Origin: Acidimicrobiia bacterium
Lineage (GTDB): Bacteria > Actinomycetota > Acidimicrobiia > Spongiisociales > JAHEDJ01
Length of the DNA stretch: 59,390 nucleotides
Assembly: GCA_029210695.1 (NCBI GenBank)
Contig: JARGFH010000022.1
Location: 1 to 59,390 of the forward strand
Direction: 5' to 3'
Shown here: positions 13,574 through 56,707 of the stretch, in pieces
Layout: each line of letters starts with the position of its first letter
Numbering within the stretch: the stretch's first letter is position 1
Program-made: the position numbers and the translations under genes
The notes under the pieces: generated by a model
What the model was told of the DNA's origin: nothing
Databases searched by the model: none
The model's input: the letters and a program-made list of their open reading frames with translations, nothing else

Positions 13574-13618
13574 TGACAGGGCTGCTGACACTCTGCTGAC
13601 AGGGTCGGCGCGGAATCT
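13574..13618 (+). promoter_or_regulatory. ICE box with -10 hexamer upstream of the transfer operon
   Basis: TGACAGGG-CTGC-TGACA-CTCTGC-TGACAGGGTC-N6-GAATCT. Confidence 0.75.
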
Positions 13619-13650
13619 AGCTCTCGTGAAGTGCACGAGAGGAGCGGCCT

Positions 13651-14400
13651 GTGGGGCCGAGACCCCCAGCGAGAGCGGCGGACACTGAACTGATTCGTCG
13701 GCTTGATGCGGAGTGGCGGATCCTGTCCCACTCGCGCTGGTTGCGAGATCGACTTGGGGCATGGGAAATCGACGATGACCGGCTGTCGTTCGATGACGGT
13801 GACCAGCTCGTCGCCGCCGCTCAGAGGCGAGATGCTCAGGGTTGGGCCGAGAGGGATGAGATCCTGGCCGCTCTTCTCGTACGAGCCACCGACGACGGAC
13901 TGGCCAAACGAGTCGCGCTCCAGGTGGTACTTCCGGGTTTGAAGAGCCTTATCAACGGAATCCGCGGCTGGGATGTCGAAGAACGAGCTGCCCGGGTCGT
14001 GGCGACGGCGTTGGACGCCATCTCCTGGTGCGCTACCGAGCCGGCAGGAACGCCACCGAGTTTTCGGATCTACGTGAACACGAGGCGCCGAGTCCTGCGC
14101 GCAGCGGTCCGTACTCGGTCGGAACCGGTGGTGTTCGTCGACGACTACAGGCACCTCGATGTTGGCGAGGAGAGCACCGACGGCCCGTCCGAAGAGCAGG
14201 AGGTTGAGCAACTCGTCGAGTGGGTTCGACAGCGGGGGCGGGTTCGGGAGGATGCGGCTCGCCTTGTAGTGATGACCCGGGTCGCCGGGGTTTCGGTCGA
14301 TGAACTGGCCGCCGCTGACAACGTCGATCCCCAGACGCTGCGACAGCGGCGACTGCGTGCCGAGTGTCGCGTTCGCCAAGCCCTGACCCTGGCTCGATGA
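13651..14400 (+). CDS. Sigma-70-like DNA-binding protein heading the transfer operon
   Basis: RVALQVVLPGL; C-terminal region-4-like HTH (TRVAGVSVDELAA...TLRQRRLRAE). Confidence 0.65.
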   Translation: MGPRPPARAADTELIRRLDAEWRILSHSRWLRDRLGAWEIDDDRLSFDDGDQLVAAAQRRDAQGWAERDEILAALLVRATDDGLAKRVALQVVLPGLKSLINGIRGWDVEERAARVVATALDAISWCATEPAGTPPSFRIYVNTRRRVLRAAVRTRSEPVVFVDDYRHLDVGEESTDGPSEEQEVEQLVEWVRQRGRVREDAARLVVMTRVAGVSVDELAAADNVDPQTLRQRRLRAECRVRQALTLAR

Positions 14401-14505
14401 CCACATCAAGACCGAGAGTGTGTCGCGTCCCGCTCCTTCGCCCGCCCCTTATGCCAGCGATAGGCCATGAAGTCCGACCCCGACCACCGACCGAATGGAG
14501 GAAAC

Positions 14506-14826
14506 ATGCAAGCTCTTTCACAGCAACCCGACCGGAAACTCGGACGAAGCGTCACCCCGCCGGACGGTGACGCCCGCGCGCTGACCGAGGTCGAGCTGGA
14601 CGGTCAGATCCGAGCCGGCTGGGGCATCTGGTGTGATCTGCTCGACGATCTCCTGAGTACTGGCGGGATGCTGCCGTCCCGTGAACTGGCCGGCCGGGTG
14701 GTGGGCTTCTTCGAGGACGGCTACTGGCGAGCCGAGGACGCCCGAGTCGAGGCGTTGCGCCGTCAGATGGCTTCCCAACACATCCGACGACGCCGTGTGA
14801 CCGATCGGTCGAGAGGGATCCGATGA
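14506..14826 (+). CDS. Hypothetical protein
   Basis: RBS GGAGGA; ATGA coupling to the next gene; Arg-rich tail. Confidence 0.65.
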   Translation: MQALSQQPDRKLGRSVTPPDGDARALTEVELDGQIRAGWGIWCDLLDDLLSTGGMLPSRELAGRVVGFFEDGYWRAEDARVEALRRQMASQHIRRRRVTDRSRGIR

Positions 14827-15752
14827 CTACCCAAGGTAACGAGGTGTACACCGGAGACCGGCACTCTCGGCGAAGCTTCACCCCGGCGCTGACCATCCGA
14901 ATCCTGTATTTCGCCCTATGGCTGCTAGTGCTGTCGGGTCCGGTCGCAGCCCTCCTCGTTGCAGCGCAGGTGTCGTCACTCAGCAAGCGAATCGACGTCG
15001 TGGATGGGCGGGCTGAAGCGGAGCCGGCTCCCGACACCGCTGGAGCTGAGGGTTTCGCCGAGCTCTTCATCGCCGCCTACCTCGGTGCCGGAGAGAATTC
15101 AACCGATTCGCTCGGTCCCTTCCTGGACAACGTTTCGTTGGATGGAGTTGAGAGCGGATCGTGGTCGGCGACGAGGACGACGAGCCTCGGCGCCTCGGAG
15201 GTCTCCCCTGGCTACTACGCGGTGAGGGTGGCTGCGGAGGTTGTTGGCGCCGGAAGCGATGCCGACGGGCAGCCCGTGTGGGTTCCGGCAGGCACCCGTT
15301 TCTACTCGGTTGGTGTGGCCGAGACGCCAACTGGGTGGGCAGTCACCGGCTTACCCACATTGATTCCGGCACCCGCCCGCGTCACTGTCCCGGACCTGCT
15401 GATTGATCGCCTTGACGGACTCGATGCGACACCAGGTCTGGAGGAGATGCTGTCGCGCTTCCTGGCTGCCTTCCTAGCCGGGGATGGCGAGCTGGCCCGG
15501 TACACCTCCCCGTCCTCGCCCATCGTTCCGATCCAGCCAGCGCCATTTTTGAGTGTCGAGATCCTCGAGGCCGGGATGGCCGAAGCGTCGGGCGGCCTGT
15601 CCGAGGTGGCGGTGGTTGTTCGGGCGACTGATATCGCCGGCCGGGCCCAGATTCTCGAATACGCCCTCGTAGTCGAACAGCGGGACGGGCGGTGGGAGGT
15701 ATCTGAGCTCTTGCCGGCACCACCCCTGGCAACGCTCCAAGAAGGCAGTTGA
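14823..15752 (+). CDS. Conjugal transfer protein, TcpC/VirB8-like
   Basis: N-terminal TM, GFAELFIAAYL, second domain RFLAAFL...LARY, RDGRWEV. Confidence 0.8.
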   Translation: MTTQGNEVYTGDRHSRRSFTPALTIRILYFALWLLVLSGPVAALLVAAQVSSLSKRIDVVDGRAEAEPAPDTAGAEGFAELFIAAYLGAGENSTDSLGPFLDNVSLDGVESGSWSATRTTSLGASEVSPGYYAVRVAAEVVGAGSDADGQPVWVPAGTRFYSVGVAETPTGWAVTGLPTLIPAPARVTVPDLLIDRLDGLDATPGLEEMLSRFLAAFLAGDGELARYTSPSSPIVPIQPAPFLSVEILEAGMAEASGGLSEVAVVVRATDIAGRAQILEYALVVEQRDGRWEVSELLPAPPLATLQEGS

Positions 15753-15778
15753 ACGAATCCAGTGAGAGGAAGGAACAA

Positions 15779-16042
15779 ATGATTGAGACAGCAGAGACCG
15801 TGGTTGGGAACTTGACCAATCTGGCGATCGGGGCGGCGGTGTTGGTCGCTATCGGCATGATCTTGTGGTCGTGGCTGGTGAAGCGGACCGTGTCGGCGGT
15901 GATCGGGGTGATCATCCTGGCCGCCATTGTCCTGTTCGCTATCAACGCCACCGACTGGCTACAGAACAAGGTGGCTGAGGACGTCGGCGCCCTCGCCCCG
16001 CCCGCTCACACAGTCGTCGTGACGATCGACGGGTCGCTGTAG
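15779..16042 (+). CDS. Small two-TM conjugation protein (TcpD/pilin-like)
   Basis: Two hydrophobic helices; lies between TcpC and TcpE. Confidence 0.6.
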   Translation: MIETAETVVGNLTNLAIGAAVLVAIGMILWSWLVKRTVSAVIGVIILAAIVLFAINATDWLQNKVAEDVGALAPPAHTVVVTIDGSL

Positions 16043-16474
16043 GTGGCGGCGATGGACTTCGACGTCTATCACTCGTACACCCAGGCTCTCCGTCACCCGG
16101 TGATTATCGGCCACGTTGCCGGTTGGCGGCTCCCGTGGGCTCTTTCGGCTTCGCAGTTGGGGGCGGTCGCTGGGATGAGCGGGCTGCTGTTGGCGACCCG
16201 ACCTGTGTGGGCGCACCTCGGGGCGGTCGGGAACCTGGCCGTGTTCACGTTGTTGATTGCCGGGTCGGGGTGGGCGGTGAGGCATTGGAGGATCGAGGGT
16301 CGCTCCCCGTTCCTGGTCGCTGCCGGACTGGCCATGGTGATTCTGTCGCCTGGGTGCAGACACGGAGTCCGCAATGGGACGCCCGTCACGCTGGCACGAC
16401 CGACCCGCGGCAACCAAGTCGGCGTCGTGATGGTGCCCGCCCCGTTGGGTCTGGGGAGGCGGGCGGATGGGTAA
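16043..16474 (+). CDS. TcpE/VirB3-like protein
   Basis: YT.A.RHP.IIG...GWRLPW, TM pair, RIEGRSP; precedes VirB4. Confidence 0.7.
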   Translation: MAAMDFDVYHSYTQALRHPVIIGHVAGWRLPWALSASQLGAVAGMSGLLLATRPVWAHLGAVGNLAVFTLLIAGSGWAVRHWRIEGRSPFLVAAGLAMVILSPGCRHGVRNGTPVTLARPTRGNQVGVVMVPAPLGLGRRADG

Positions 16475-18965
16475 TCCGCTTCCGGTGCGGGGCGTCACCG
16501 GTCATCTGGTGTGGGGCGCCGATGGGGCCGTGTGGGCGTGCTTCGAGGTGGAATCGTTCCCATATCCGCATCGGTCGGTTCGTGATGCCCGGGAGGTGCG
16601 TGCTCGCACCACCGCCGCTCTCCTCGGTCTCCCGACCCATTCGCTGATCCTGTCGATCGGCCGCAACCTCTCCCGCGATGAGCTTGAACAGCGGATCCGT
16701 GGCGAAGACGCTGCGCCTGGCTGGGCGGGCACGGCGCGTCGCACGGCGAGTCGGCTGGCCTCGGAGTCGGTGTATGAGCGCCGCTGGTTTCTTGCCGTTC
16801 AACTCCCCGACACGAGCGGCAGGCGCCGCATGGTGGATCGGCTCCGGGCGGCGGCATCAGAGCTCGGCTGTGCATTTGGGATACCTCCACAGGTCGTGGG
16901 GCGTGGTCGAGTTGCAGTGGCGATTTCGCAGGCGGGTTCTCTGGCGGATCAGCTGTCACAGCATCTCCGTCTCCGGCCGCTCGACGCCGGCCAGGTGCAC
17001 TGGCTCTACCAGCGAGCGGTGCTGCGGGGCCTCCTCGACCCGCCCCTCCCGAATGACAACAGCGCGGATCATCCGTCGGTGGTCAGGTTGGATCGTGATG
17101 CCGTCTACTTCGAGGGTGGCCGCCGGACCGATCCGGATCGGCTGTCGCATTGGCGGTACCTCACCGTCGAACATCCCGACTACGGGACCGGCTATCAAGC
17201 CTTCTCCTGTCTGGCTGAAATCCCAGCGGCCTGGACGTTCCCGTATGGGTCCGGGGAGTGGCTGTGGCATCTGGACGATCAGCTCCCCTTCCCCCTCGAC
17301 TGGGCCGTCCGCATTGAGAGAATCGACAATCAGGCGGCCCGCCGCCGAGCATTGCGGGCGAAGCGGAACCTGGTCGGCCAACTCGCCGAACCGGGTGGCG
17401 ACCCGGCCGGCCCGGCCACCACCCTCACCGCCGCCACCGATGCGGTCGACGAGCATCGGGCCCGGCTCGAATCGAATCCGGCGCTCCCGGCGCTGCGGGC
17501 GACCACCATCGTCGCCGTCGCCCATCGGAACCTGTCGGAGGTGGAGCGGCGGGTGGCCGTGTTCGAATCCGGGTTCCGGGCGGCCGAGTTCAACTTCTAT
17601 CGGCCCACCGGCGCCCAGCTGGCGTGTTTCACCGCCATGCTCCCCGGAGCACCAGTCTTGCCGGTGGTACGGGAGTACGCCCAGGACCTGTTGCCCGACG
17701 GTCTCGCTTCGGCGATGCCGTTCGCCGGCTCGGGTGTCGGCGACCCCGGCGGCATGCTCCTCGGTTTCTCCCTCGACGGGCTTCTTCCCCGTCCCGTCTT
17801 CCTGGATCCTGCCCATGGCCCCCGAGATCTCAACCGGTCCGGGTCGCTTGCTGCCATCGGTGAACTCGGAGCCGGCAAGAGCTTCCTTGCCAAGACTCTC
17901 GCCTACAACACGGTGGCGATGGGCGGCCAGGTGGTCGCTATCGACCGTACCGAGCAGGGCGAATACGGTCGGCTCGCCGAGGTGATGGGGGGCACCGTCC
18001 ATGTGGTGGAGATCTCGGCCGATGCGGCCGTGGGTCTGGACCCGTTCCGGGTGTTCGACACCGACGAACTGCGACTCCGTTACGGGGTCGGGTTCATCAC
18101 CCTCCTCACCGCCACCCCACCAGGCTCGACCGCCGGCACTCATTGCTACCGGGCCGCCCAACACACCTTGGAACGGGCCGCACAGACCGGTCAACCCGCC
18201 CGACTGCGTGATGTGATCGACGACCTCGAAGCATCCGACGGACCGGGTGGTGAGGTGGCTGACAAGTTGCGGGCCCTCTCCGAGATCTCCTACGGCCGGT
18301 TGGTGTTCGGGGACCCGGGACCGGCTGTCGACCTCGACGGTGACTACGTGTGCTTCCACATCCCCGGTCTGCGCCTCCCCCGCCGCGGGGTGTCGCGGGA
18401 CGATCAGCTCCCTGAGGAACTCCTCGGCCAGGCCATCTTGTACTTGGTCGCCGCCTTCTCCCGCCGGGTACTGTTCCGAGACGTCCGCCGGTTTGCGGCT
18501 CTGCTGTTGGACGAGGCTCACGCCTTGACTGCGAGTGCTCAGGGTCACGGGCTGGTGATGGACCTGATCCGTGACGGCCGCAAGCACTTCGCCGCGGTGT
18601 GGGCGTTCAGCCAACTCGCCACCGACCTCACCGCCGAAAGCGGCACCGAGGACGTCGACACGCTGTTGGGTTACCGGGTCGTGTTCCGCCAGTCCCCCGG
18701 GACCGCTGCCGACGCTCTCCGCTTCCTCGGTTCGGACGGCCGGGACGACAACGTCGAGACGATCGCATCGCTCGGTACCGGCGAGTGTCTCATGCGGGAC
18801 CCCTCTGGGCGTCTTGGGCTGGTCCGCATCGCTGTACCCGACGACCCCGACGTTGCCAACGCCTTTTCCACGACCCCCGGCGCCAGCCGGGTGGCGGTTG
18901 GACCGTGGCCCTCCCTCAGCCACGATCACGATTCGGGGCTCGTCGCCGGCGGGACGGCACCGTGA
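16467..18965 (+). CDS. virB4: VirB4-like conjugation ATPase
   Basis: GELGAGKS, LLLDEAH, RDGRK, SQ, GECLMRD..GR.G. Confidence 0.88.
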   Translation: MGNPLPVRGVTGHLVWGADGAVWACFEVESFPYPHRSVRDAREVRARTTAALLGLPTHSLILSIGRNLSRDELEQRIRGEDAAPGWAGTARRTASRLASESVYERRWFLAVQLPDTSGRRRMVDRLRAAASELGCAFGIPPQVVGRGRVAVAISQAGSLADQLSQHLRLRPLDAGQVHWLYQRAVLRGLLDPPLPNDNSADHPSVVRLDRDAVYFEGGRRTDPDRLSHWRYLTVEHPDYGTGYQAFSCLAEIPAAWTFPYGSGEWLWHLDDQLPFPLDWAVRIERIDNQAARRRALRAKRNLVGQLAEPGGDPAGPATTLTAATDAVDEHRARLESNPALPALRATTIVAVAHRNLSEVERRVAVFESGFRAAEFNFYRPTGAQLACFTAMLPGAPVLPVVREYAQDLLPDGLASAMPFAGSGVGDPGGMLLGFSLDGLLPRPVFLDPAHGPRDLNRSGSLAAIGELGAGKSFLAKTLAYNTVAMGGQVVAIDRTEQGEYGRLAEVMGGTVHVVEISADAAVGLDPFRVFDTDELRLRYGVGFITLLTATPPGSTAGTHCYRAAQHTLERAAQTGQPARLRDVIDDLEASDGPGGEVADKLRALSEISYGRLVFGDPGPAVDLDGDYVCFHIPGLRLPRRGVSRDDQLPEELLGQAILYLVAAFSRRVLFRDVRRFAALLLDEAHALTASAQGHGLVMDLIRDGRKHFAAVWAFSQLATDLTAESGTEDVDTLLGYRVVFRQSPGTAADALRFLGSDGRDDNVETIASLGTGECLMRDPSGRLGLVRIAVPDDPDVANAFSTTPGASRVAVGPWPSLSHDHDSGLVAGGTAP

Positions 18966-20461
18966 GCCATCACCAAGACACGGCGGAGCGCCGTCGCCAG
19001 GCGCCGGCTTTGGACGGGTGGGGGTGGATCGTCGCATGGCTCCTCGCTGTCCTCGCCATCACGGCAGTGGTCTGGGCGCCCCCGGCCCACGCCCAGACCG
19101 GTGAACCTACCCCCGGCGTCGAGTTGGGTGAGGAGTTGTATCCGCCCACCGACTACCCGACCGACGACAGTCAGGGGATTGTCGGGATCGGCCGTTACGA
19201 CATCGGCTGCGACAACGACGGGTTCATCGGCGACATCGGGTGCGTGACGATCGGCACGGCCACCGACCTGGTCTTCTCGATCGCCAAGATGCTGGTCGCC
19301 CTCGCCATCTGGTTGCTTGAGGCCGCCACCGGGTTCGTCATCGAAGGAGCGCTAACCGACGCCGCCACCGCTGTCGCCGACCTGTTGGATGGTCGGGTGC
19401 TGGGGCCGATGCGACTGTCGCACCTGGGACTGGTCGTCTCCGCCCTCTACATGGGTTGGCAGTTCCTGCGGGGAAAGGTCGGTGCCGGGGCCGGGGAGTT
19501 CGCCCTCACCCTGATCGTGTTCGCCGTGCTCGTCCACGTCACTACCGGACCCGGCTTCGGGGGAGCGGTAACTGGCGCGATGCGAACTGCCGGTGGGATC
19601 TCGGCCGAGATTGTCTCGCTCGCCGCCGACACCGACCGAGATGCCAATGTGTCCGATGGGGTGAGCGGGGCGTTGATGGCCGGGTTCGTTCGTGACCCCT
19701 ACGACACCATCAACTGGGGAAAGCCACTCCAAACGAGTTCATGTGCGGACGCCCGCAACCAGGCGTTGGTTTCCGGACCTCACGGCTTCGACGACACCCC
19801 CCGACAGCTGATGCAAGCTGCTGGATGCGACGCTGAGGCCGGGTTCAACGCCGACGCCACGGTCGGGCGCCTCGTCGGAGCTTTGCTCTACCTGGTCGTC
19901 GCTGCAGCGGCCCTCGCCCTGTTCGTGGTCACCGCCTTCACCCTGGTGGTCGCTAAGGGCCTGGCCCTGTTCCTGATCGCCCTCCTCCCCGTCGCTCTCT
20001 ACGCCGGGCTGTTCCCCGGTGCGGGGCGCAGCCTCCTCTGGCATTGGGTGGCCGCCCTCGTGCGGGTGGTTGCTCTCGTGATCGTGATGGGTGTCTTCCT
20101 CGCCCTGCTAATCACCGGCCTCAATGGGCTCCTCGGCGTGGCGGGCGGCATGTGGACACGGTTCCTGCTGGTGATCTTCTTCATGGCCGTGATGACGATC
20201 GGCCGCCGTCAACTCCTCGACATCGCCTCCCGGTTCGCCGATTCCACGCTCGGTCGCCTCGAAGGCGGCCAGGTCGGAGGCTCCCACGGGGCGGCCTGGA
20301 TTCGCCCCTACCAGGCGGGAGGGCTCACCGGACTCGGCGTCACCCACACCGTCCGCGAGGCCACGACCGACCTTCCCGCCTTGCCCCGCAAGAAACCCCA
20401 AGCGGTGCCCGCCCTGACGGCGGCAGCCTGGCAGCAGGTTCCGCGGAGGACCTCGGCGTGA
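18962..20461 (+). CDS. VirB6-like polytopic membrane protein
   Basis: Multiple TM helices, P...INWG motif, position after VirB4. Confidence 0.72.
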   Translation: MSHHQDTAERRRQAPALDGWGWIVAWLLAVLAITAVVWAPPAHAQTGEPTPGVELGEELYPPTDYPTDDSQGIVGIGRYDIGCDNDGFIGDIGCVTIGTATDLVFSIAKMLVALAIWLLEAATGFVIEGALTDAATAVADLLDGRVLGPMRLSHLGLVVSALYMGWQFLRGKVGAGAGEFALTLIVFAVLVHVTTGPGFGGAVTGAMRTAGGISAEIVSLAADTDRDANVSDGVSGALMAGFVRDPYDTINWGKPLQTSSCADARNQALVSGPHGFDDTPRQLMQAAGCDAEAGFNADATVGRLVGALLYLVVAAAALALFVVTAFTLVVAKGLALFLIALLPVALYAGLFPGAGRSLLWHWVAALVRVVALVIVMGVFLALLITGLNGLLGVAGGMWTRFLLVIFFMAVMTIGRRQLLDIASRFADSTLGRLEGGQVGGSHGAAWIRPYQAGGLTGLGVTHTVREATTDLPALPRKKPQAVPALTAAAWQQVPRRTSA

Positions 20462-21648
20462 GCTGGCATCTCGTCGCCCGCGCCGCCGCCCATGTCGCCA
20501 AGAAGAAGCTCGCCGAGCAGAGAAGCGGTTCGGTGCTCTGGCGGGTCGTCGTCACCGTCGGGATGGTGACCGCACCACTCGGCCTCGTCCTCCTCATTGT
20601 GATGCTTGGGGTCGCGGCGGTGGTCGCCCACAGCCCTGCGGCCGCCGCTAGCGGAGCGCTCGGCATCCCGCCGGTGGTGTTCTCCGCCTACGTCGCCGCC
20701 GAAACAAACGCACCGAGCATCGCCGCCGGCTGTGTGGTGGATTGGCCGATCATCGCCGGCATCTGGGTGGTCGAATCCGGCCACGCCACCACTGGTGGAC
20801 GTAGCGTCGGCTCCGACGGGCAAGTGACCCCGCCCCTCTATGGGATCACCCTTGACGGCTCACAGCCCGGCACCGCCATCGTCCCCGACTCCGACGGTGG
20901 CCTCCTCGACGGCGACCCGATTTGGGACCGGGCGGTCGGGCCTGCACAATTCCTCCCCGGATCGTGGCGTGCCTTCGGACAGGACGCCAACAAGGACGGC
21001 ACGGCCGACCCGCAGAACGTGTTCGACGCCGCCCTCGGCTCCGTCGCCCACCTCTGTCTCACCGCGCCCGGCGACTACACCAACCCCACCGACCTCGAAG
21101 CGGCGATACACGGCTACAACAACTCGGCCGAGTACGTCGCCACCGTCTCCGGGTGGATCGACTATTACCGGTCGTTCCAGTTCGCCCAAGGTGCCATCAC
21201 CGCCGACGGGCTATACGCCTTCCCCCTCCCAGTCGAATCGGTCACGGTCGACCAGATACGCAGGAGTCACCACGACTACCCCGCCTCCGACCTCGGCGTA
21301 CCCGAAGGCACCCCCGTCTACGCCGCCCACCCCGGCACCGTCAGCAACGTCTACGAGCCATGCCACACCTGCAAGTGCGGGCGGGGTGTCACCATCACCG
21401 GTCTCGACAACCACCGCTACACCTACTGCCACGGCACCCAAGTCAACGTCGAGCCCGGAGCCGAGGTGACAGCCGGACAGCTGATCATGACGTCGGGCAA
21501 CACCGGCAACTCCGAAGCCCCACACCTCCACTTCCAGATCCGCAACCCCGACGGTGCCCTGCTCTGCCCTCAACAGCCGCTCGAGGCCTGGTGGAACGGG
21601 ATCGGGCTCAACCCCGCCACCGCACCCACCAGCGGCTGCACGCACTGA
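20458..21648 (+). CDS. Lytic transglycosylase plus M23 peptidase (conjugative cell-wall hydrolase)
   Basis: VES.H, RAVGPAQFLPGSW, YNNS..YV; M23 H...D, Y.H, SGNTGNS..PHLHF. Confidence 0.88.
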   Translation: MSWHLVARAAAHVAKKKLAEQRSGSVLWRVVVTVGMVTAPLGLVLLIVMLGVAAVVAHSPAAAASGALGIPPVVFSAYVAAETNAPSIAAGCVVDWPIIAGIWVVESGHATTGGRSVGSDGQVTPPLYGITLDGSQPGTAIVPDSDGGLLDGDPIWDRAVGPAQFLPGSWRAFGQDANKDGTADPQNVFDAALGSVAHLCLTAPGDYTNPTDLEAAIHGYNNSAEYVATVSGWIDYYRSFQFAQGAITADGLYAFPLPVESVTVDQIRRSHHDYPASDLGVPEGTPVYAAHPGTVSNVYEPCHTCKCGRGVTITGLDNHRYTYCHGTQVNVEPGAEVTAGQLIMTSGNTGNSEAPHLHFQIRNPDGALLCPQQPLEAWWNGIGLNPATAPTSGCTH

Positions 21649-21661
21649 AAGGAACAACCAC

Positions 21662-21979
21662 ATGCCACCCGTCCAACCTCAGCCGGTCGACCCGACCGAA
21701 ATTCTTAACAAGCGGCGGATTGGAGCAGCCTTCGCCGCCCTGACCAACTCCGACGATTGCCACTCCGATGTTTCCCTCCAACTCGACGAAGAAGAGCGAA
21801 GGAGCATCGCCCACGTCCTCAACGACAACTCACATCCCCTCGGTGGGTTCGCCCAGACAGTCCTCGACCAATGGGACCAACTCGATGCCGACGATCGAGT
21901 AGCGGGACTCCTCCTCTTCGCCGAGATCGTCAACCGGCCACACCGGCAACGAACCGTCGCGCAGGGGATGGAAAGGTGA
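21662..21979 (+). CDS. Hypothetical protein
   Basis: RBS GAAAGGA; GTGA overlap with the next gene; ends QGMER. Confidence 0.65.
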   Translation: MPPVQPQPVDPTEILNKRRIGAAFAALTNSDDCHSDVSLQLDEEERRSIAHVLNDNSHPLGGFAQTVLDQWDQLDADDRVAGLLLFAEIVNRPHRQRTVAQGMER

Positions 21980-48645: not shown

Positions 48646-48654
48646 GATCGGCTC

Positions 48655-49080
48655 ATGAGCTGGTGGGGATGGATCGGTCTCACCGCCGGCGTCCTCATCG
48701 TCGCCGTCACCGCAGCCGCGTTGACGGCTCGACGGAGTCGCACGGCGCTGATCGAACTGGCGCGCCTCATTCCCCTTTGCCTCGCCTTGCTCCGCGACAT
48801 CATGAGGGACCCGCTTGTGCCGCGCCGGGCCAAGATCGCCCCCGCCCTCGTCGTCGCCTATCTCGCGATACCGTTCGATCTCGTACCGGACTTCATTCCT
48901 GTCCTCGGCTACCTCGACGATGCCCTGATCGTCGCCTGGGTGATCCGACATCTGATCAAAGCCACCGGGCATCAGCGACTCCAGACCCATTGGAAAGGCG
49001 ACCCTCAAACCTTGGAGCGCATCATTCGGCTCCTGCGCATTCCACCCGCCCCCAGTTCTCCAACCCAAGGGTCCGCATAA
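48655..49080 (+). CDS. YkvA/DUF1232 family membrane protein
   Basis: Y...PFDLVPDFIPVLGYLDD. Confidence 0.88.
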   Translation: MSWWGWIGLTAGVLIVAVTAAALTARRSRTALIELARLIPLCLALLRDIMRDPLVPRRAKIAPALVVAYLAIPFDLVPDFIPVLGYLDDALIVAWVIRHLIKATGHQRLQTHWKGDPQTLERIIRLLRIPPAPSSPTQGSA

Positions 49081-49085
49081 CCGCA

Positions 49086-49535
49086 TCACGGACCACCAGT
49101 CCCTGAGTCCAACCCGACCAACCCTTCAGTAATCCCGAACCGCTCGTCTTCCCGGATGAATCGTTCGATCGGACCGGCTGCGCGGGCGGTGACCTGCCAA
49201 TCGAATCCCGGGACGAGCCGGGGTGCTCGCCCCGTCACCTCGACGCTGACCGTGTCGGCGGTCCGGGTAACCGTTACCTCCGGGTCGGTGATGTTGCCGG
49301 CAGCGTCGAGGAACCACTCGGCGGCTCGCGTCCCGTCTTCCTCGGTCGCGGTGGCGACCTGGGCGGCGTCGACTGCCTCTCGTGCCGCTGCATCGGCGAT
49401 CTGATCGGCGTGCCACCACAACGTGACCTGGAACGGGATGAGGACGAGCGCGATTAGGACGGGCATGAGCACTGCAAGTTCGGTGGACGTGAGCCCCTTC
49501 TCGTGTGCGAATCGTGCCGAGTCCATCGCTGCCAT
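49086..49535 (-). CDS. tadE: TadE-like pseudopilin with C-terminus replaced by insertion sequence
   Basis: EKG|LTSTELAVLMP, AAAREA; native similarity ends at ERFI. Confidence 0.8.
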   Translation of the reverse strand: MAAMDSARFAHEKGLTSTELAVLMPVLIALVLIPFQVTLWWHADQIADAAAREAVDAAQVATATEEDGTRAAEWFLDAAGNITDPEVTVTRTADTVSVEVTGRAPRLVPGFDWQVTARAAGPIERFIREDERFGITEGLVGLDSGTGGP

Positions 49536-49545
49536 CGGCGAACCC

Positions 49546-49764
49546 TTAGTTGCCGGGAGGCGCGACGTTGTCGGGGATCGCCTCGGCGTTGGATGTCATC
49601 TTGGCGATGAGGATCAGGCCGGCGGCGACCGCAATGGCGACCAGCACACCCGTTAGGACGGCTGCTTCGGTGGACATGGCGCCTCGTTCGTCACGGACCT
49701 GGACCCCGATCCGGGTGAGGCCCACCTCGATTAGGAGACGGGCATAGTCGATGTACGTGGACAT
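49546..49764 (-). CDS. Flp-type major pilin
   Basis: RDERG|AMSTE followed by a hydrophobic helix. Confidence 0.78.
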   Translation of the reverse strand: MSTYIDYARLLIEVGLTRIGVQVRDERGAMSTEAAVLTGVLVAIAVAAGLILIAKMTSNAEAIPDNVAPPGN

Positions 49765-49824
49765 GGGTGCTCCCTTCGCTCGTGAGTTGTCCGGGTTGTG
49801 GTTGGTGGTTTCCTTTCAGTGGTT

Positions 49825-50742
49825 TCATGGGATTGCCCCGGGGGTGGAGATGGCCTGCACGACGCCGAATCCGATGAAGAGAATCATGCCGACGACCAGC
49901 GTGACGACCGGCAGCAACATCTTCTCGGTGGCAGCTTCGGCTTGGGCCTCGATGGCGGCGGTCTGGCTGGCACGCATGGAGTCCGCCTTGGCGGCGAGAG
50001 ACGCCCGGATGCGGGCACCCTGATCGCCTGCCAGGTGAGCCGCTGCTGCCAGTTCGCGCAGTTCGTCGACACCCAACTCCTGTCCGAGTTGGTCGAAGAC
50101 CTCCCACGGTGTTCGACTGGTGAGGCGGGCCCTGTGGAGCGCGGCGCGGATCTCGGCGAAGGCCCACCCATCTCCAAGGTCGGCTGAGGTCTGTAGAGCC
50201 GTTTCGAGCCCTCCGCCACCGGCCAGGATGATGGTGACGAGATCCAGGTAGGCGGACAGGGAGTGGCGGAAGTCGCGGCGGCGGCGTTCGATCCGCTCGG
50301 ACAGCCCGAGATCCGGGTACATGAATCCGGCCAGCGACAGTCCCACTGCCAGGGCCACGATGACGCCGGGGGAAACCGACACTCCGGCCGCTGCGACCGC
50401 TAGGCCGAAGATGACCGGGATTAGGAGTCCGGCCATCCCACCGAGCAGCTTTTCGAAGGCATGGGCTTCGATCGGTTTGCCGAGCGCCCGGAGGCGACGC
50501 CGGAGCTCGCCGAGATCCGCGAGTCCTGTGGACTCGACGACCCGGATCACCCACTGGCCGATCCGGTCGGCCACGCCGGAAGTCGACGACGCCGGGGCAA
50601 GCTCGGCCAAGGAGCGACGCGGCCGTTCGAGGTCCGCGAGGGCTCTGCTGAGAGGTATCGGCCGAGGGAACAGCGCCCGGAACCCGAGGACGACACCAAG
50701 CCCGACGCCTGCACCGGCGACCATGACTGCCAGCAGTGTCAT
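49825..50742 (-). CDS. tadC: TadC (T2SS F family)
   Basis: YLDLV.I.L.GG.GLE.AL; L..KA..MR; EKM.LP. Confidence 0.85.
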   Translation of the reverse strand: MTLLAVMVAGAGVGLGVVLGFRALFPRPIPLSRALADLERPRRSLAELAPASSTSGVADRIGQWVIRVVESTGLADLGELRRRLRALGKPIEAHAFEKLLGGMAGLLIPVIFGLAVAAAGVSVSPGVIVALAVGLSLAGFMYPDLGLSERIERRRRDFRHSLSAYLDLVTIILAGGGGLETALQTSADLGDGWAFAEIRAALHRARLTSRTPWEVFDQLGQELGVDELRELAAAAHLAGDQGARIRASLAAKADSMRASQTAAIEAQAEAATEKMLLPVVTLVVGMILFIGFGVVQAISTPGAIP

Positions 50743-51602
50743 CGCTCCGCTCCTTTGAGTTCGGGTGCGTGGCGGAGTCTGAATCGTTCGGGCGTCTCGA
50801 GCCGGCTGTAGTGATGCAGCATCACCCCTGCACCGAAGAACACGGCCAACACCACGAGGAGCCAACCCTGCCCGGCCGCGGTGTCATACGGCTCAAGGAG
50901 GTGCCCGGCGAACACGTACAGAAAGACGACGGTGGCGACAGTGGTGGCGACCGCGATCCGGGCAGACGTGCGGATCCGTGCCCGGCCAATCTCGATACGG
51001 CTACGCATGCGAACATCGCCGCGGATTGCCTCCGCCAGGCGGGCAAGCAGGGGGCCGAGGTCCCTGGCCTCCAACCGTGCAGCCGCAGCGAGAGAGGCCA
51101 CGACAAGGTCAGCGGACGAGTGGTCCAAGTCACGAGCAAGATCATCGAGGGCAGCGTCGAGTGGCTGATGCCGCAGCCGCAGCGCGAAAGATTGGAGCTG
51201 CGGTTTGATGGCGATAGGGGCGACCGTTGCGGTCTGGATGAGCGACTCCTCCAGACCCGACGCCCCGGCCATGGTGTCGCGGATCATGTCCGCCCAGGTG
51301 GCAATGGCATCGGCCGTCGCTGCTTCCTCTGCACGCCTGGCTGTGCCCCCCACGGCTGCAGGTCCTGCCAGTAGTCCGAGCGCGGCCCCGATCCCGGCAA
51401 CCGGCCAACCGGTCCCTAGCCCCACGACGATGCCCACCAGCAGCGAGACGGCGAGCCATGCGACGGCACGATTCGCCGGCACTTCGTTGGGGACGAGTCG
51501 CCGCGCCTCGGGTACGACGCGGACTCCCCTAGCTGCGGTGATCCCCAGCCACAGCCCGAAACCTGCAACGGCCCCGGCGCCGGCAATTAGCAGGACCTGC
51601 AT
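50739..51602 (-). CDS. tadB: TadB (T2SS F family)
   Basis: W...IRD...G.GLE; PYDT..GQ; located between cpaF and tadC. Confidence 0.83.
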   Translation of the reverse strand: MQVLLIAGAGAVAGFGLWLGITAARGVRVVPEARRLVPNEVPANRAVAWLAVSLLVGIVVGLGTGWPVAGIGAALGLLAGPAAVGGTARRAEEAATADAIATWADMIRDTMAGASGLEESLIQTATVAPIAIKPQLQSFALRLRHQPLDAALDDLARDLDHSSADLVVASLAAAARLEARDLGPLLARLAEAIRGDVRMRSRIEIGRARIRTSARIAVATTVATVVFLYVFAGHLLEPYDTAAGQGWLLVVLAVFFGAGVMLHHYSRLETPERFRLRHAPELKGAER

Positions 51603-51604
51603 AC

Positions 51605-52906
51605 TTACCACCACCCTGCCACATTGGCCAGATATGAGGGGTCGAAGCCGACACGGACGAGACGGTCCAACGTGTCGTTGCGGATGGTCGGCCCGGGTGC
51701 CGGAGTCGCCCTCCCGTCGGTTGATGGTCGGTATACCTCGTTGGTTGCGATCTGACGTTCCTCGGCATCGAGCACTTCGCGGATGCTGGTGACCCGACGC
51801 ATGCCATCGACCCAGCCGAGATGGACGATCAGATCGACGGCGTTGGCGATCCACTTGTTCGAGGTCTGCTCATCGAGACCGGCCTCGGCCGTGTACATGC
51901 CGAGCCGCACGATGGCGCCCTTCGATGAGTCGGCATGAATAGACGACATGGACCCGTCGTTGCCCTGGGACATGGCGCGGAGCATGTCAACGACCTCGAC
52001 ACCGCGGATCTCCCCGACGATCACCCGGTCGGGGTTCTGACGTAGCGTCGCCCGCACACAGTCGGCCAACGTCGCTTCGCCCCGGCCCTCGATGTTGGCG
52101 CCCCGTCGCTCCCACATGACCTGGTCCGGGTGGAGATCTGCGAACCGATCCAACCCGATTTCGAGGTTGTCTTCGACGGTCACGACGCGTTCATCGGGCG
52201 GGATCTCGTTCAACAGGCACCGCAACATCGTGGTCTTGCCCGTGTTGGTGCCGCCCGCAACGATCAAGTTCAGCTTCGCCTGCACCGCCGCGGCGAGGAA
52301 CGCTGCCAACCCCTCGTCGATGACGCCCAAGTCGATGAGGTGCTTCAGCCGATAGATGCTGAAGTCGTGGCGGCGGATCGTGATTGCTGGCCGACCCGTC
52401 AAGCCCATCACGGCATGGAGACGCTCCCCACCCGGGAGTTGGAGGTGCAGTTCCCACGACACCTGGTCCCATCGCTTCTCCGACCTGCCCATCCTCCGAG
52501 CTGCCGTTGCGATGATCTCGATCAACTCGCGATCGGAGTCCGCCGCTGGTTCACCGTGGATCTTCGTGCCGTCCCGATAGACGAGCCACACGTTGTCGTG
52601 ACCGTTGACGTGGATGTTCGCCAGCTCCGGGTCGTCGATGTAGGGCTGGAGCCTCCCCAACCCGTGAACCCGATCAAAGACAGCATCCGCAAGCTCGGAT
52701 TCTGTCGCGGCGTCCAGCGGCGCTTCTCCGTTGCGGTAGGCGTCCTCGGCGAGACGCCGAAGCTCGGCAGCGATCAGGGAGCGCGTTAGCGCCTTCTCGT
52801 CGTCCAGGCTCAGAGGATGGTCGCCGTCGAGGGAGCGAAGCTGCTCCGACAGCTTCTCCGCCACGGCTCCGTGGAGCTGTCCGCGCAGGTCCATGTCGCT
52901 GTTCAC
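51605..52906 (-). CDS. cpaF: CpaF/TadA pilus ATPase
   Basis: GGTNTGKTT, TVED..E, LRQNPDRVIVGEIRG, SSIHA. Confidence 0.92.
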   Translation of the reverse strand: MNSDMDLRGQLHGAVAEKLSEQLRSLDGDHPLSLDDEKALTRSLIAAELRRLAEDAYRNGEAPLDAATESELADAVFDRVHGLGRLQPYIDDPELANIHVNGHDNVWLVYRDGTKIHGEPAADSDRELIEIIATAARRMGRSEKRWDQVSWELHLQLPGGERLHAVMGLTGRPAITIRRHDFSIYRLKHLIDLGVIDEGLAAFLAAAVQAKLNLIVAGGTNTGKTTMLRCLLNEIPPDERVVTVEDNLEIGLDRFADLHPDQVMWERRGANIEGRGEATLADCVRATLRQNPDRVIVGEIRGVEVVDMLRAMSQGNDGSMSSIHADSSKGAIVRLGMYTAEAGLDEQTSNKWIANAVDLIVHLGWVDGMRRVTSIREVLDAEERQIATNEVYRPSTDGRATPAPGPTIRNDTLDRLVRVGFDPSYLANVAGWW

Positions 52907-53694
52907 GACGTTGCCTCCTGAACCTGCTCCTTCGGTTGAACGAGGGATGCCAGCTGGGTGTTGTGTCCCGGTTCAGGTCGGGACGGGCGCGTCGGAGCGA
53001 GTCGTTCGGCCAGAGTCGCAACCGATCGAACCAGCGGGGAGCGGCGGAGATCGCGTACCGAGCCACGGGCGCCGGTGAGAACGGCTGCTGTTCGGGGATC
53101 CCAAGCGACGATCCCGACCACAGGCATCTGGAGCGCGGCGGTCACTTCGGCCGGACCGTACGGCTTATCGCCCACCAGCAACAGACCGACATCAATGCCC
53201 AATGCGTTGAGGGCCCCGAGTCGATGCGCCGCCGGTCGAAGCTGGTCGAGCGTTGGGCGAGTGAGCACCATCACGACACCTGCCTCGCCGATGGTGTCGA
53301 TCGTCGATAGGCCCGGTGGAATCCTCCCGCAGTCGATGATCACGTCAATCTCAATCTGTTCCGTTGACCAAGCGGTGAGGGCATCAGCGATGTCGCGCAG
53401 CACGACATGCGCCTCATCGGGTGAGGCGGGACCGACCAGGACCGGTACTCCTCCGGGGAGGTATTGGGCGTGCCGCCAGACAACGTCGTCATCCAACCCC
53501 CGTCGCGAATCCGCAGCGAGCGACGAGAGGCCGGGCGTGTCGCCCAAACCGTATCGGGCCGCGATCACCCCTCCGAACAGGTCCGCCTCGACCAAGAGAC
53601 AGCGGCGGTGCGATGGCCAGGTGGCCGCCAGCGCCAGCGCGGTGGTGGTCACGCCCGGTGATCCATGCGCAGATGTCAGGCACACCACGCTCAT
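52903..53694 (-). CDS. MinD/CpaE-like ATPase
   Basis: SAHGSPGVTTTALALA, LVEAD..GG, IDCGR. Confidence 0.8.
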   Translation of the reverse strand: MSVVCLTSAHGSPGVTTTALALAATWPSHRRCLLVEADLFGGVIAARYGLGDTPGLSSLAADSRRGLDDDVVWRHAQYLPGGVPVLVGPASPDEAHVVLRDIADALTAWSTEQIEIDVIIDCGRIPPGLSTIDTIGEAGVVMVLTRPTLDQLRPAAHRLGALNALGIDVGLLLVGDKPYGPAEVTAALQMPVVGIVAWDPRTAAVLTGARGSVRDLRRSPLVRSVATLAERLAPTRPSRPEPGHNTQLASLVQPKEQVQEATS

Positions 53695-54386
53695 TGGTCG
53701 ACTCCCGAAACCAACACGAGCCGAACCCTGCCGGCGGCAGCCGCGCCGGCAACCTTGGCTGCATCGTCAGCAGGCAACAGCAGTGAGATGAACCGATCGC
53801 CCTGGGTCCCCAGCTCCGCAACGTCGAATACCTCGGCAGATGTCGCGACAGCTTCGATGTCGGTGACTCCCTCTTCAGACGGCGTCCGACTTGTGAGCAC
53901 GACATCGACTCGGTCACCGGGCGTCAACAGCAGCGTCGGATACTCGCCCGGTGCCAACGCCATGCCGACAACACCCTCACCCGCGTCGAGGAGGCTGCGA
54001 GACACCAAGTGCGCCGAAGTGAGAAGGGTGCCGGGTTCGAGGTCCGCAACCGCGGTCAAACCGACCAGGCCGGCGGCTGCGTCCGGCGGAAGGCTGCTGA
54101 CCGGATCGTCGGTCGCCACGTACACGACCATCAGATCGCCAGACGTGACGGCCTCGCCGCGCTCCACCGATTGGGCAAGAGCAAGCGCTGGTTCTCGAGC
54201 CGCGGCCTGGGAGAACAGAACCACCGCCACCAGTGCACTCACTGCCACCATGAACACGGCAATCAACAGTTGTGGGATCTCCACCTTTCGGCGGGGTGCC
54301 TCCAGCCGAAAGGGACTCTCCGATTGCTGGCCATTACCCGACGGGTCGACACGCCCCGTCGATGCTTTCGTAGTGCTCCTGTTCAT
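53691..54386 (-). CDS. SAF-domain/CpaB-like protein
   Basis: TM, V.RGE.VT..DL, A..DL.PG.LL, L.PGDRV. Confidence 0.78.
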   Translation of the reverse strand: MNRSTTKASTGRVDPSGNGQQSESPFRLEAPRRKVEIPQLLIAVFMVAVSALVAVVLFSQAAAREPALALAQSVERGEAVTSGDLMVVYVATDDPVSSLPPDAAAGLVGLTAVADLEPGTLLTSAHLVSRSLLDAGEGVVGMALAPGEYPTLLLTPGDRVDVVLTSRTPSEEGVTDIEAVATSAEVFDVAELGTQGDRFISLLLPADDAAKVAGAAAAGRVRLVLVSGVDQ

Positions 54387-54387
54387 G

Positions 54388-55284
54388 TCACCCTCCCGTC
54401 TCCACGGCCTGGATCTCGGCAACCTCAACCCCGAATGAAGCCGACAGGTCAACCGACCCGAACACTCCCTGGTAGACGTCGTTGATCCACCACTCGAACT
54501 CCCACCTCACCATCACCGAAGCTTCGAAGCGGCCCTCCGGCTCGCCATAGGAGCTGTGCAGGTAGGTGTACGCACAGTCCGTGTCAGCCTCGGACGCACC
54601 CGACACCCACACCACACCCGGACCCAGACAAGTGACCGCGCCGCCATCACCCATCAGCCACCGGGCATGCATCGGGGTCGCCCGAACCGTCACCGTCGTC
54701 AACCCCCGCGTTGTGGAGACCTCGATAGGCGACCATGCGGCCTGGTCCAGCCAAAGCCACGTCGGGACACGAACAAACGTCTGTCGTGCAAGAGGTGGGC
54801 TCGTCTCCGGGACTGGAGTCGGCGGCTCCAGACGAGCAGCAGCGATGTCCCGGATGACTTCGGGCGGGACAGGCGGGGTCACCTCGACCGCGAACTCGAA
54901 GGCATGCGCCGGCTCCCCCTCCCGCCAACAAGTGACGTTCCACCACCAATACTCCCCTGTCGGATCAAATCCCAGGTTCTCCACATCCCCCGGACTGAGC
55001 TGATCCATCGCGTCAAACTCGACCTCGTCACCCTCCTGGTACTCACCGACGGCAGCCGCGCAGTAGATGTCCCAGGCCTCATGGACAGTCCCTCCACCCG
55101 GTTGTCCCGGTGTTACCCCGTGACACTCAGCGACGACGTCTCCCCCTCCTTGATAGATATCACCCTCGCCGGAGCAGTGGTGGGCGGATGCCGGCGCGAC
55201 TGTCAGCAACGTCGCCGAGCCGAACAGGGCGATGGCGACGATCAAACGGACGGCAGTCCACGGTTTGTTGGTGCGAACTCGCAT
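54388..55284 (-). CDS. Secreted Tad-associated protein (PKD-like C-terminus)
   Basis: Signal peptide, PTWLW, W.MGDG..V.C.GPG, C.YTY..SS, EIQAV. Confidence 0.75.
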   Translation of the reverse strand: MRVRTNKPWTAVRLIVAIALFGSATLLTVAPASAHHCSGEGDIYQGGGDVVAECHGVTPGQPGGGTVHEAWDIYCAAAVGEYQEGDEVEFDAMDQLSPGDVENLGFDPTGEYWWWNVTCWREGEPAHAFEFAVEVTPPVPPEVIRDIAAARLEPPTPVPETSPPLARQTFVRVPTWLWLDQAAWSPIEVSTTRGLTTVTVRATPMHARWLMGDGGAVTCLGPGVVWVSGASEADTDCAYTYLHSSYGEPEGRFEASVMVRWEFEWWINDVYQGVFGSVDLSASFGVEVAEIQAVETGG

Positions 55285-56375
55285 GCGAAATCCACTTGTC
55301 CCTGTAGGTCTGAAACTTTCCAGAGGCCGCCCTCAAGGACCATTACGGCCGACTCGAGGTTGCGCTGACCGGCCTGAACTGCCGGCACGTCGTCGAGCCG
55401 TTCTCCCGAATTGACGTCGTAGAGGCCGTAGTCGGAGTCGGGCTCTAGGCAGCTCAAGATGACTAATTCTGTCGGACTCCGAACCTCAATCACTTCCGGA
55501 TGCAAGACCGGGCGACCCCTGAGAGCCGCACTCCGAGCCTGATGATCGACAAGGAGCTCGAGGATGAGGGCCTTCTGTGGTTCGATGAGAACCTCTCCGA
55601 CCAGTGGGGAGTCCGGGTTGGCTGGATCCCAGAATTCGTTCCACCCGGCATAGAAGGCTTCGTATCCGGCGATCGCAGCGTCAGCCATCTCCTCAGGTAC
55701 ACAGCCACCACCACTCGGAATCCGAACAGCGTCAACCACCCAGCCTTGCTCGGTCAGAGTCAGATCCGCCTGGTACCAGACACCAACCGTGTCGGTCAAC
55801 GACGGCGAAAGCAACACACAATCCTCGACTGAGGCCCGATCGGGTTCGAAGTCGGTAACCGTTGGGTGGAGCACGACTTCGGTATCAACTGGACCAAGCC
55901 CCGAAGAGCGCTGACGCTCGAAAAGGACAAGAGCACCATCGACCACGTCCGTGGCAGCGACCACCTCAAGAGGCGCCCGATCGAGATCATCCGAGGCCCG
56001 CACCTCCACCCACGCATCCCAATAGGCGCTCCACGCGTCAACCACATCTTCAGCAAGTGGAAGCGTCGATGTCACGGCGATCAATGTCGACGTACTCGTA
56101 GAAGTGGACGGTGGGCCCGTATGTGTGGACGTCACGGGTGGGATTGACGAGGTTGTCGTTGACTCACTGGAGCCCGACGACGTGCAGGCACTCATAACCA
56201 GCAACGCCGCGATGGCGACGCCCAAAAGAAGCGGCGGCCTGGTCAGGCCACCGAACCCGATTGACCAGCGTCGTGGGCTCAAATGGCTACCCCTCACTCC
56301 CAGTAGCCATTCCCACCCTACGCGTCTGACAACGCAACTGGCGGAGCGAACTAGAGAGAACATCTTTTCATCCAC
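55242..56375 (-). CDS. Putative lipoprotein with two similar domains
   Basis: Lipobox-like VMSAC, Ser/Thr linker, repeated A(W/Y).A(Y/F)...VLHP.V...C...W.V; the start is uncertain. Confidence 0.65.
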   Translation of the reverse strand: MDEKMFSLVRSASCVVRRVGWEWLLGVRGSHLSPRRWSIGFGGLTRPPLLLGVAIAALLVMSACTSSGSSESTTTSSIPPVTSTHTGPPSTSTSTSTLIAVTSTLPLAEDVVDAWSAYWDAWVEVRASDDLDRAPLEVVAATDVVDGALVLFERQRSSGLGPVDTEVVLHPTVTDFEPDRASVEDCVLLSPSLTDTVGVWYQADLTLTEQGWVVDAVRIPSGGGCVPEEMADAAIAGYEAFYAGWNEFWDPANPDSPLVGEVLIEPQKALILELLVDHQARSAALRGRPVLHPEVIEVRSPTELVILSCLEPDSDYGLYDVNSGERLDDVPAVQAGQRNLESAVMVLEGGLWKVSDLQGQVDFACEFAPTNRGLPSV

Positions 56376-56405
56376 CTAAGGGGCACCAGCAGCCGGGGAA
56401 CGCGA

Positions 56406-56580
56406 CAACCCTTTCACCAGAGTGTCAACAGCCCTCCAACCGGATCCGGAGACCCTCTGAATCGATGAGACCGACGCCGCCATGTCCGAACCATTCCATC
56501 GCACCCTCTCACCAAAGTGTCAGCAACCCTCTCACCAGAGTGCCAGTAACCCTTTTACGCACATCAAGAACCCTCCAACT
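56406..56580 (-). promoter_or_regulatory. ICE boxes upstream of the Tad operon
   Basis: CCCT(C/T)T(C/T)A at 56504, 56527 and 56550 (23-bp period), plus a copy at 56406-56440; the minus-strand box is followed by N6-AATGGT-N6-ATG (56483). Confidence 0.78.
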
Positions 56581-56667
56581 CGCGAGAATTGCACTTTCCA
56601 GGTCGGCGATCCGACGACCACCGGCGGGCGACGAGGCGGCCCTGGATATGGTCGATATGGCAACGGT

Positions 56668-56701
56668 CTGACATCCTGGTGAAAGGGTTCACGCCGATGA
56701 T
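56668..56701 (+). promoter_or_regulatory. ICE box with -10 hexamer; probable leaderless promoter of xis-int
   Basis: CTGACATCCTGGTGAAAGGGTT-N6-GATGAT-N6-ATG. Confidence 0.72.
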
Positions 56702-56707
56702 CTGTCC

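Follow-up and report, generated by a model that had tools for sequence, protein, structure and literature searches.

A membrane-anchored SARP protein as candidate reader of a conserved promoter box in an actinobacterial integrative and conjugative element and its satellites

What switches on the transfer of actinobacterial integrative and conjugative elements (ICEs) that use a T4SS (type IV secretion system)? The window analysed here, a 59,390-nt stretch of DNA from an Acidimicrobiia bacterium (contig JARGFH010000022.1, assembly GCA_029210695.1), carries such an ICE, and copies of one conserved box precede its mobility genes. We consider it likely, at a rough probability of 70%, that this box is the operator of a membrane-anchored SARP protein encoded by the ICE, that an ICE-encoded sigma factor forms a second tier, and that small satellite elements bearing the box are switched on by a visiting ICE. 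Such a regulon would work as SetCD and AcaCD do with their satellites, but its components are most likely a SARP tethered to the membrane and a sigma factor that the ICE itself encodes. The literature searched (titles and abstract openings, mostly without subscription journals) held nothing on the box, on a LysM-SARP activator of conjugation or on the sigma promoter, and no account of how transfer of T4SS-type ICEs or Tad plasmids of actinobacteria is switched on; a candidate master activator with its operator and a second-tier sigma factor with its promoter can now be named for this step.

A repeated box at fixed promoter spacing

The original prediction had derived a consensus box from this DNA and placed it before the T4SS operon, the relaxase, the ArdC-primase, the Tad operon and xis-int. 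At up to three mismatches, the window contains eight matches to this consensus against 0.06 expected; seven lie at the loci just listed and one elsewhere (11678, three mismatches). The 23-bp period proposed for it is present and can be refined: the box is an array of alternating 12- and 11-bp direct repeats, a pair of which sums to 23 bp. With the leaderless start taken as +1, the last two repeats occupy -40..-30 and -29..-19; after a gap of 6 nt comes a hexamer, at -12..-7. All five claimed hexamers stand at exactly this spacing, 7 nt 3' of GGGT, which equals 6 nt after the 11-nt repeat. GAATCT (13613-13618) follows a box of three repeats at 13574..13606 on the plus strand; CACGAT (35132-35127, ATG at 35119) follows the box 5' of the relaxase leader (35139..35170, minus strand); CACTAT (35416-35421, GTG at 35428) follows an array 5' of the leaderless ArdC-primase gene (35342..35409, plus strand); AATGGT (56495-56490, ATG at 56483) follows the first Tad array (56503..56578, minus strand); and GATGAT (56696-56701, ATG at 56708) follows the two-repeat box of leaderless xis (56668..56689, plus strand), which is the distal part only, as had been stated. 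A start codon 6-7 nt past the hexamer, originally reported for four copies, is found in all five, but it opens the main gene only at ArdC-primase and xis. The other three open small open reading frames (ORFs) of 20 codons out of frame (13574), 35 codons (Tad) and 59 codons (relaxase); the first of these starts lies in frame with the sigma gene in contigs C55 and C148.

Two further conserved copies lack a -10. One is a second SARP-type box in the Tad leader (56408..56439, minus strand), which abuts a sigma-type -35 and has no SARP-type -10; it follows the first Tad box at a distance of 95 bp, a spacing kept in 7 of 11 loci. The other is a single repeat in reverse orientation (35035..35043, plus strand) beside an oriT candidate, and its sequence tracks the box type of the element in loci L156 and G242. 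The oriT candidate itself (34983..35005, plus strand) is a short hairpin with a conserved flank, within the 59-aa leader ORF; its DNA is kept at 85% or more across 19 relaxase leaders of ICEs and satellites, and the ORF is not conserved as a protein. We take it to resemble the nic regions of MOBF relaxases.

Is the box specific to mobile elements? Scanning the genome with a box matrix gave 34 matches of at least 20 bits, the eight window copies on which the matrix was trained among them, against 0, 0 and 1 in three shuffled genomes. Within 2 kb of a mobility marker lie 32 of the 34, while the markers, two of them serine recombinases picked because of their adjacency to boxes, cover 7.5% of the genome. 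The motif is thus not common genome-wide, and nearly all of its strong matches sit at mobility genes of sister ICEs and of small satellite elements. At least five sister ICEs are present in this genome (five copies of the sigma gene, and gene maps), with boxes at matching positions, and relatives of the element were located in Acidimicrobiia records; at the sigma-gene position, a repeat box of one type or another occurs in 15 of 15 aligned loci. The box is genuine and element-specific.

Among 31 terminal boxes, the hexamer has A at -11 in 23 and T at -7 in 27, begins with C or G in 23, and is followed by a start codon 5-8 nt later in 27. Leaderless genes of the host use TAnnnT, which stands at spacing 6 in 121 of 1843 genes but at spacings 11-22 in just 2-10, and since the box -10 deviates from this sequence, the box promoters look weak and activator-dependent. 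The geometry finds a close parallel in AfsR, which binds two 11-bp repeats at -40..-19 over a weak -10, CACTGT (PMC10936776; papers cited by PMC number are drawn on here and below in excerpts). The 19-bp site bound by SetCD, by contrast, coincides with -35 or lies immediately upstream of it (PMC4344509). By this analogy the geometry of the box is of the SARP type, unlike that of SetCD and AcaCD.

The LysM-SARP protein as candidate reader

The original prediction named three candidate readers: a BTAD protein, the sigma-like protein at 13651 and the protein at 14506. The first is favoured here for its fold and for the co-variation between its recognition helix and the box; the second fits better as a downstream sigma factor, and the third is left without support, no family match having been obtained for it in NCBIfam and Pfam scans. 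The favoured protein (41236..44589, minus strand), proposed as master activator, is encoded by the last gene of the Tad operon and belongs to the core of the sister ICEs. It comprises, in this order, three transmembrane helices, three LysM domains, a further transmembrane helix, an FtsK/TcpA-like fold and a C-terminal SARP domain (winged helix-turn-helix, wHTH, plus BTAD; approximately 41239-41997) with the recognition helix at approximately 41785-41826. LysM-BTAD homologues are found on 162 PLSDB plasmids.

How firm is the SARP assignment? In Foldseek, a structure model (pLDDT 64) matched AfsR and EmbR at E-values of 2e-5 to 6e-5 (AfsR entries 8k60/8hvr, E 2e-5); TcpA and FtsK were matched as well, presumably via the middle domain, which has no Walker A motif. 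A profile of 25 sequences aligned to AfsR across wHTH and BTAD with an E-value of 2e-18, and a second profile match reached 1e-24. With the C-terminal domain alone, Pfam places BTAD above its cut-off. A phmmer search of the single SARP domain against the PDB gave nothing useful, and a profile of the full-length protein matched only LysM. Of the AfsR residues, W74, S91, R92 and R94 align to W, S, R and R in the ICE protein, while the contact residues T88, R87 and K95 are changed to R, N and T.

Weak profile matches also link the domain to the membrane-anchored wHTH activators of the ToxR, TcpP and CadC group. In 19-20 homologues, net charge alternates around the first helices (+2.0, -1.4, +3.3), the third of which is only moderately hydrophobic, and changes from -6.2 to +5.2 around the last transmembrane helix. 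By the positive-inside rule, this alternation predicts a topology with LysM outside and the SARP domain inside.

A connection between protein and box comes from related elements in which both have changed. In the window and other elements of type A, the helix RLNRHTSR goes with a TGACA/TGAVAGGG box; in type B (G007, G165, L164, L168), RLSQLVSR goes with TTGGAG repeats; in type C (G242), RGPRYISD goes with TGGTGAAC repeats at four promoters; and L161, L162 and L166 have helix and box variants of their own. The spacing is kept in all types. For 22 elements with an ArdC promoter and a SARP domain, windows of 11 residues were slid along the domain and their distances correlated with box distance, after removal of overall SARP and ArdC distance (partial r). 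Each of the eight top-ranking windows, out of 243, overlaps the recognition helix, with r up to 0.67 against a maximum of 0.44 in the ArdC control, and pruning to 15 rows gives 0.70 against 0.53; the rows are kin, so that a permutation p overstates the significance. In addition, the equivalent of R92 is replaced in two elements that sit on separate branches, G130 and L156, and each of them has TGAGA instead of TGACA, a parallel made weak by the mixture of TGAGA and TGACA within the window itself. As natural variants of helix and box exist, the proposed pairing is open to a direct swap test.

In our picture, neighbouring SARP protomers would occupy the 11/12-bp repeats at -40..-19 as well as the repeats upstream, and would bring housekeeping RNA polymerase to promoters that are weak and in many cases leaderless. 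The targets of the SARP would be xis-int, the relaxase, the ArdC-primase, the Tad leader and the ECF-like (extracytoplasmic function) sigma gene, and because the SARP gene is the last of the Tad operon, activation would close a positive loop. A bolder extension, which we hold to be doubtful, is that the LysM-SARP protein acts as a one-component contact sensor: LysM would bind the peptidoglycan of a recipient drawn in by the Tad pilus, the signal would pass via the FtsK-like domain to the SARP domain, and the loop would commit the cell to excision and transfer. The tethered protein might further hold oriT at the mating site via the reverse repeat, and box and helix might diverge into types of private specificity, by which the ICEs escape satellites more numerous than their helpers. 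An outside LysM coupled to a transcription activator makes recipient sensing testable, and the proposal gives a possible function to the LysM-BTAD gene that closes actinobacterial Tad loci.

A putative sigma tier and the satellites

The box at 13574 had been placed upstream of the T4SS operon. It does lie there, but the gene it precedes is sigL (13651..14400, plus strand), which encodes a putative ECF-like sigma factor, and the T4SS operon has a sigma-type promoter of its own directly after sigL: TGTCGCG-N17-CCCCTTA (14421..14451, plus strand). A second copy stands in the Tad leader directly after the second Tad box (56377..56407, minus strand). YGTCGCG-N17-CCCCTTA is found 5' of the 14506 homologue in 13 of 13 loci, whether their box is of type A, B or C; of 13 Tad leaders 9 contain it, and of 13 satellite loci none does. 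The tight motif has nine matches in the genome, all with spacer 17 and all in ICEs, against 0-1 in ten shuffles, and 15 other spacers gave one match in total; all eight matches to a loose motif likewise have spacer 17. The sigL product resembles sigma factors by an NCBIfam match to sigma70-ECF (E 0.01), by Atlas clusters with Sigma70_r4 in 11-22% of members, and by Foldseek, where the top matches are all sigma factors (best E 5e-3; model pLDDT 55, with approximately 80 in the sigma-4 part and below 60 in the remainder). The invariance of the promoter motif across box types fits the invariant sigma-4 helix, and we infer that sigL is paired with this promoter and would transcribe the T4SS and Tad operons from it. 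The master-activator regulon of the original prediction is thus supported in part, as an ICE-wide system over excision, relaxase, primase and pilus genes, but it looks like a two-tier cascade rather than one flat regulon.

Across the predicted transcription start site (TSS) of the sigma gene lies an inverted repeat (13621..13641, plus strand). It is predicted to mask part of the Shine-Dalgarno region by base pairing if the RNA reads through from upstream, but not otherwise: in 13 of 14 loci the full arm gives -7.9 to -13.0 kcal/mol, and RNA from the inferred TSS gives -4.2 kcal/mol or weaker, values that have no shuffle control. On plasmids, an early notion of SARP without sigma, based on tblastn with sigL finding none, was dropped when a profile found homologues in Curtobacterium and Microbacterium (E 1e-6 and 1e-4); distant sigL homologues occur on two of the three plasmids examined. 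The Curtobacterium plasmid pC1b (L125), which encodes one of them, has a related bipartite motif, ATTTGTCCCGG-N18-CCYCY, at 6822, 25994, 36032 and 37679, and two of these four sites stand before its T4SS and Tad operons. In a distant element with Tad, LysM-BTAD and sigL genes (G586, contig C1, approximately 895,700-925,000; L139-L141), four to five promoters, some of them leaderless, carry another motif, GAGGGGCCTAC, which frequently has GCGAAG on its upstream side and looks sigma-type.

The box also occurs on elements smaller than the ICE. Nine of 40 relatives carry the full box, and none of these gave sigL or a close SARP; VirB4 was not found in any of the five box-bearing genomes tested, a search that had no positive control and did not include G036, the genome of L047. 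In 14 regions from six box-bearing genomes, boxes stand 5' of xis/int, of the TrwC leader or of a large recombinase. By its motif, we take the latter to be of the serine type. Seven loci (L034, L035, L040, L043, L044, L046, L047) combine an integrase with TrwC and resemble integrative and mobilizable elements (IMEs). In the present genome, satellite C124 has a TGCGA variant that is also found in the ICE L162. Order-wide, a 20-mer of the box occurs in 73 of 401 genomes, most of them drafts (G021 enters these genome tallies only), and its reversed control in none. These small elements, which lack a T4SS and bear a SARP box at xis/int, relaxase or recombinase, would be activated by a visiting ICE. 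Satellites thereby come to light in large number, and many of them encode a MOBF relaxase; a 2017 review, in the excerpts drawn on here, states that no MOBF IME and one actinobacterial IME were known (PMC5704250). In one class of satellites (contigs C9 and C21 of G000; L037, L038, L041), the box is followed by a leaderless ORF of approximately 65 aa and a large recombinase, with no relaxase match nearby.

Alternatives, known systems and the remaining genes

Several observations weigh against the proposed two-tier SARP regulon. The wHTH part of the SARP domain falls below the Pfam cut-off (Trans_reg_C, E 0.025), and the sigma assignment of the 13651 protein is weak in every single test; by count alone, the loose motif of its proposed promoter, with 8 matches against 4-7 in shuffles, is not above chance. 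Independent box types are few: once type B and G242 are taken out, the helix windows keep the top rank, but their r of 0.44 is below the ArdC control maximum of 0.50. In sigL, windows of region 2 (residues approximately 114-130) reach an r of 0.75, from which it follows that the size of r does not discriminate and that the information lies solely in where the peak falls. The 73 box-positive genomes far exceed the 18 of 401 with a close SARP, which would fit a situation in which satellites outnumber their helpers, and in five genomes rich in boxes, the SARP/BTAD proteins are all distant and generic. Finally, a de novo search of intergenic DNA detected no SARP-type box in three plasmids and five distant Acidimicrobiia LysM-BTAD regions (MicroB, Curto, Strep, two regions of G503, G637 and contig C2 of G136 among them), although the same search, which recovered the boxes of the window and of G242, missed a known group B box; one of the five regions, that of G586, has the other motif given above. 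An initial clustering, also de novo, that took in every -10-like site had returned pure noise. The SARP-box system may thus be confined to this ICE family, and the sigma tier may be wider.

Could another protein read the box? That the ECF-like sigma factor does so itself, or is the sigma at box promoters with the SARP as partner, is unlikely in our view. Its gene is core in the ICEs and the first behind a box, its region-2 windows co-vary with the box, and the box -10 is unlike the host consensus; yet distances of 11 and 22 nt between repeats and -10 misfit a -35/-10 spacer, the separate invariant promoter with its 17-nt spacer suits the factor better, its sigma-4 helix hardly varies from one box type to another (r -0.18 to 0.33 in 15 loci), and it would have to start itself, its own promoter carrying a box. 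BldC-type proteins bind direct repeats, and the Xis of the ICE (HTH_17, BldC/RdfS-like), which has a weak match to that family, might polymerise head-to-tail on the box as activator or repressor. As many satellites carry xis and would then regulate themselves, this would also explain boxes in genomes without an ICE. However, one Xis helix, VPVATLYVWRHR, is identical in L156 with its type A box and in L083, L164 and L168 with their type B boxes; Xis and sigma-4 helices alike are almost unchanged between these two types, the fixed spacing from box to -10 matches a SARP, and some box loci have no xis match (L035, L037, L041, L003, L009), which leaves Xis a distinctly unlikely reader.

A host factor, be it a SARP/BTAD protein or another wHTH protein, would account for boxes in the many genomes that encode generic SARPs without a close one, and the LysM-BTAD protein would then be merely a structural part of the pilus, in line with a homologue labelled pilus assembly protein in a table of Cutibacterium plasmids (PMC3666418). 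We regard this as very improbable: there is no host regulon (328 of 401 genomes lack an exact match, and 32 of 34 strong matches in this genome lie beside mobility genes), and box type tracks the helix of the ICE SARP rather than the host family: in family f2, each of the types A, B and C is found. Least credible of all is that the boxes are repressor operators or DNA-processing sites, as the two conserved copies without a -10, one of them beside the oriT candidate, might suggest; the terminal copies stand at a fixed distance before a weak -10 with its conserved A and T and a start codon, an arrangement to be expected where promoters depend on an activator.

Which known systems does the proposed SARP regulon resemble? 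Closest in logic are SetCD of the SXT/R391 ICEs and AcaCD of IncA/C plasmids with the mobilizable genomic islands and SGI1 (PMC4344509; PMC5704250): an element-encoded activator, a box at fixed position over weak excision and transfer promoters, divergent boxes back to back, and satellites that bear the box of the activator. The analogy drawn in the original prediction holds for the regulon logic and the box-bearing satellites, but not for the geometry or the protein. SetCD is FlhCD-like, and no FlhC/FlhD-like family was detected in 51 ORFs (Pfam) or 28 (NCBIfam), scans that did not cover every small ORF; here, the activator would be a membrane-anchored SARP on direct repeats that reach into the promoter spacer, with a second sigma tier and several types of box specificity. 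With AfsR, ActII-ORF4 and EmbR (PMC10936776), the system would share the wHTH and BTAD fold, 11-bp direct repeats at -40..-19 and a suboptimal -10 starting with C. Described SARPs are soluble proteins that carry the domain N-terminally and regulate genes of secondary metabolism or the cell wall, whereas the SARP domain of the ICE is C-terminal, behind LysM, transmembrane helix and FtsK-like fold, on a conjugative element with repeats alternating between 11 and 12 bp.

A membrane-tethered OmpR-type DNA-binding domain with a sensor outside, as proposed for the ICE protein, is familiar from ToxR, TcpP and CadC; these differ in having no BTAD and the reverse domain order, and are not known as regulators of ICEs. 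Described actinobacterial T4SS-type ICEs share the combination of integrase, MOBF relaxase, coupling protein and VirB4 (PMC3218068), and in Tad-bearing plasmids a LysM-BTAD gene lies in the Tad locus, labelled pilus assembly protein (PMC3666418); the excerpts of these two papers describe no regulation.

The five modules of the ICE were confirmed with Pfam and NCBIfam, the T4SS genes at 14823-24101, and integrase, relaxase, type IV coupling protein (T4CP) and VirB4, all present, make up the gene set of a T4SS-type ICE. Its T4SS operon (14506..24101, plus strand), conserved in sister ICEs, encodes the 14506 protein, TcpC, a TcpD-like protein, TcpE, VirB4, VirB6, an M23/SLT hydrolase and T4CP. 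It is accompanied by the TrwC (MOBF) relaxase-helicase (31845..34946, minus strand), the fusion of ArdC-N with a DnaG primase (35428..37365, plus strand), the Tad/Flp pilus operon (44586..56375, minus strand; a lipoprotein, the 54388 protein, RcpC, TadZ/A/B/C, pilin, TadE/G) and xis (HTH_17) with a tyrosine integrase (56708..58175, plus strand). As to the ends of the ICE, no tRNA, terminal repeat or att site was detected in the window. A scan of viral contigs found no relative.

The Tad operon is interrupted by a 3.77-kb island (45427-49191) with a tyrosine integrase (45589, plus strand), an HTH gene (46664, plus strand) and DUF1232. It lies where tadE1 ends, upstream of the SARP gene, and is skipped by the contigs of four other runs; in contig C155 there is a copy of 97% identity, and tadE2 is missing. 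This island could be polar on the activator gene. A 1213-aa ORF at 45448 was discarded as a gene, being probably an antisense shadow of the island. The left flank of the sigma gene (6012-13482), with an SMC-like ATPase, two unknown genes, a small pair with an E1/ThiF protein, DUF3800 and Ymh, is probably defence cargo; within it, gene 8689 has a weak ECF match. The stretch from T4CP to relaxase (24237-31690) holds further cargo, with genes for a type IIG restriction-modification enzyme and for a PLD-SNF2 helicase. Variable cargo at 37413-40585 consists of an HTH-ImmA/IrrE protein and two unannotated genes; the HTH-ImmA gene (37413) was considered as a core regulator and dropped, being present in only one other contig. 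The contig ends in an IS110-family transposase (58550-59390), and a half-site of the box at 58589, which has no -10, belongs to the end of this IS110 element, as it does in contig C12.

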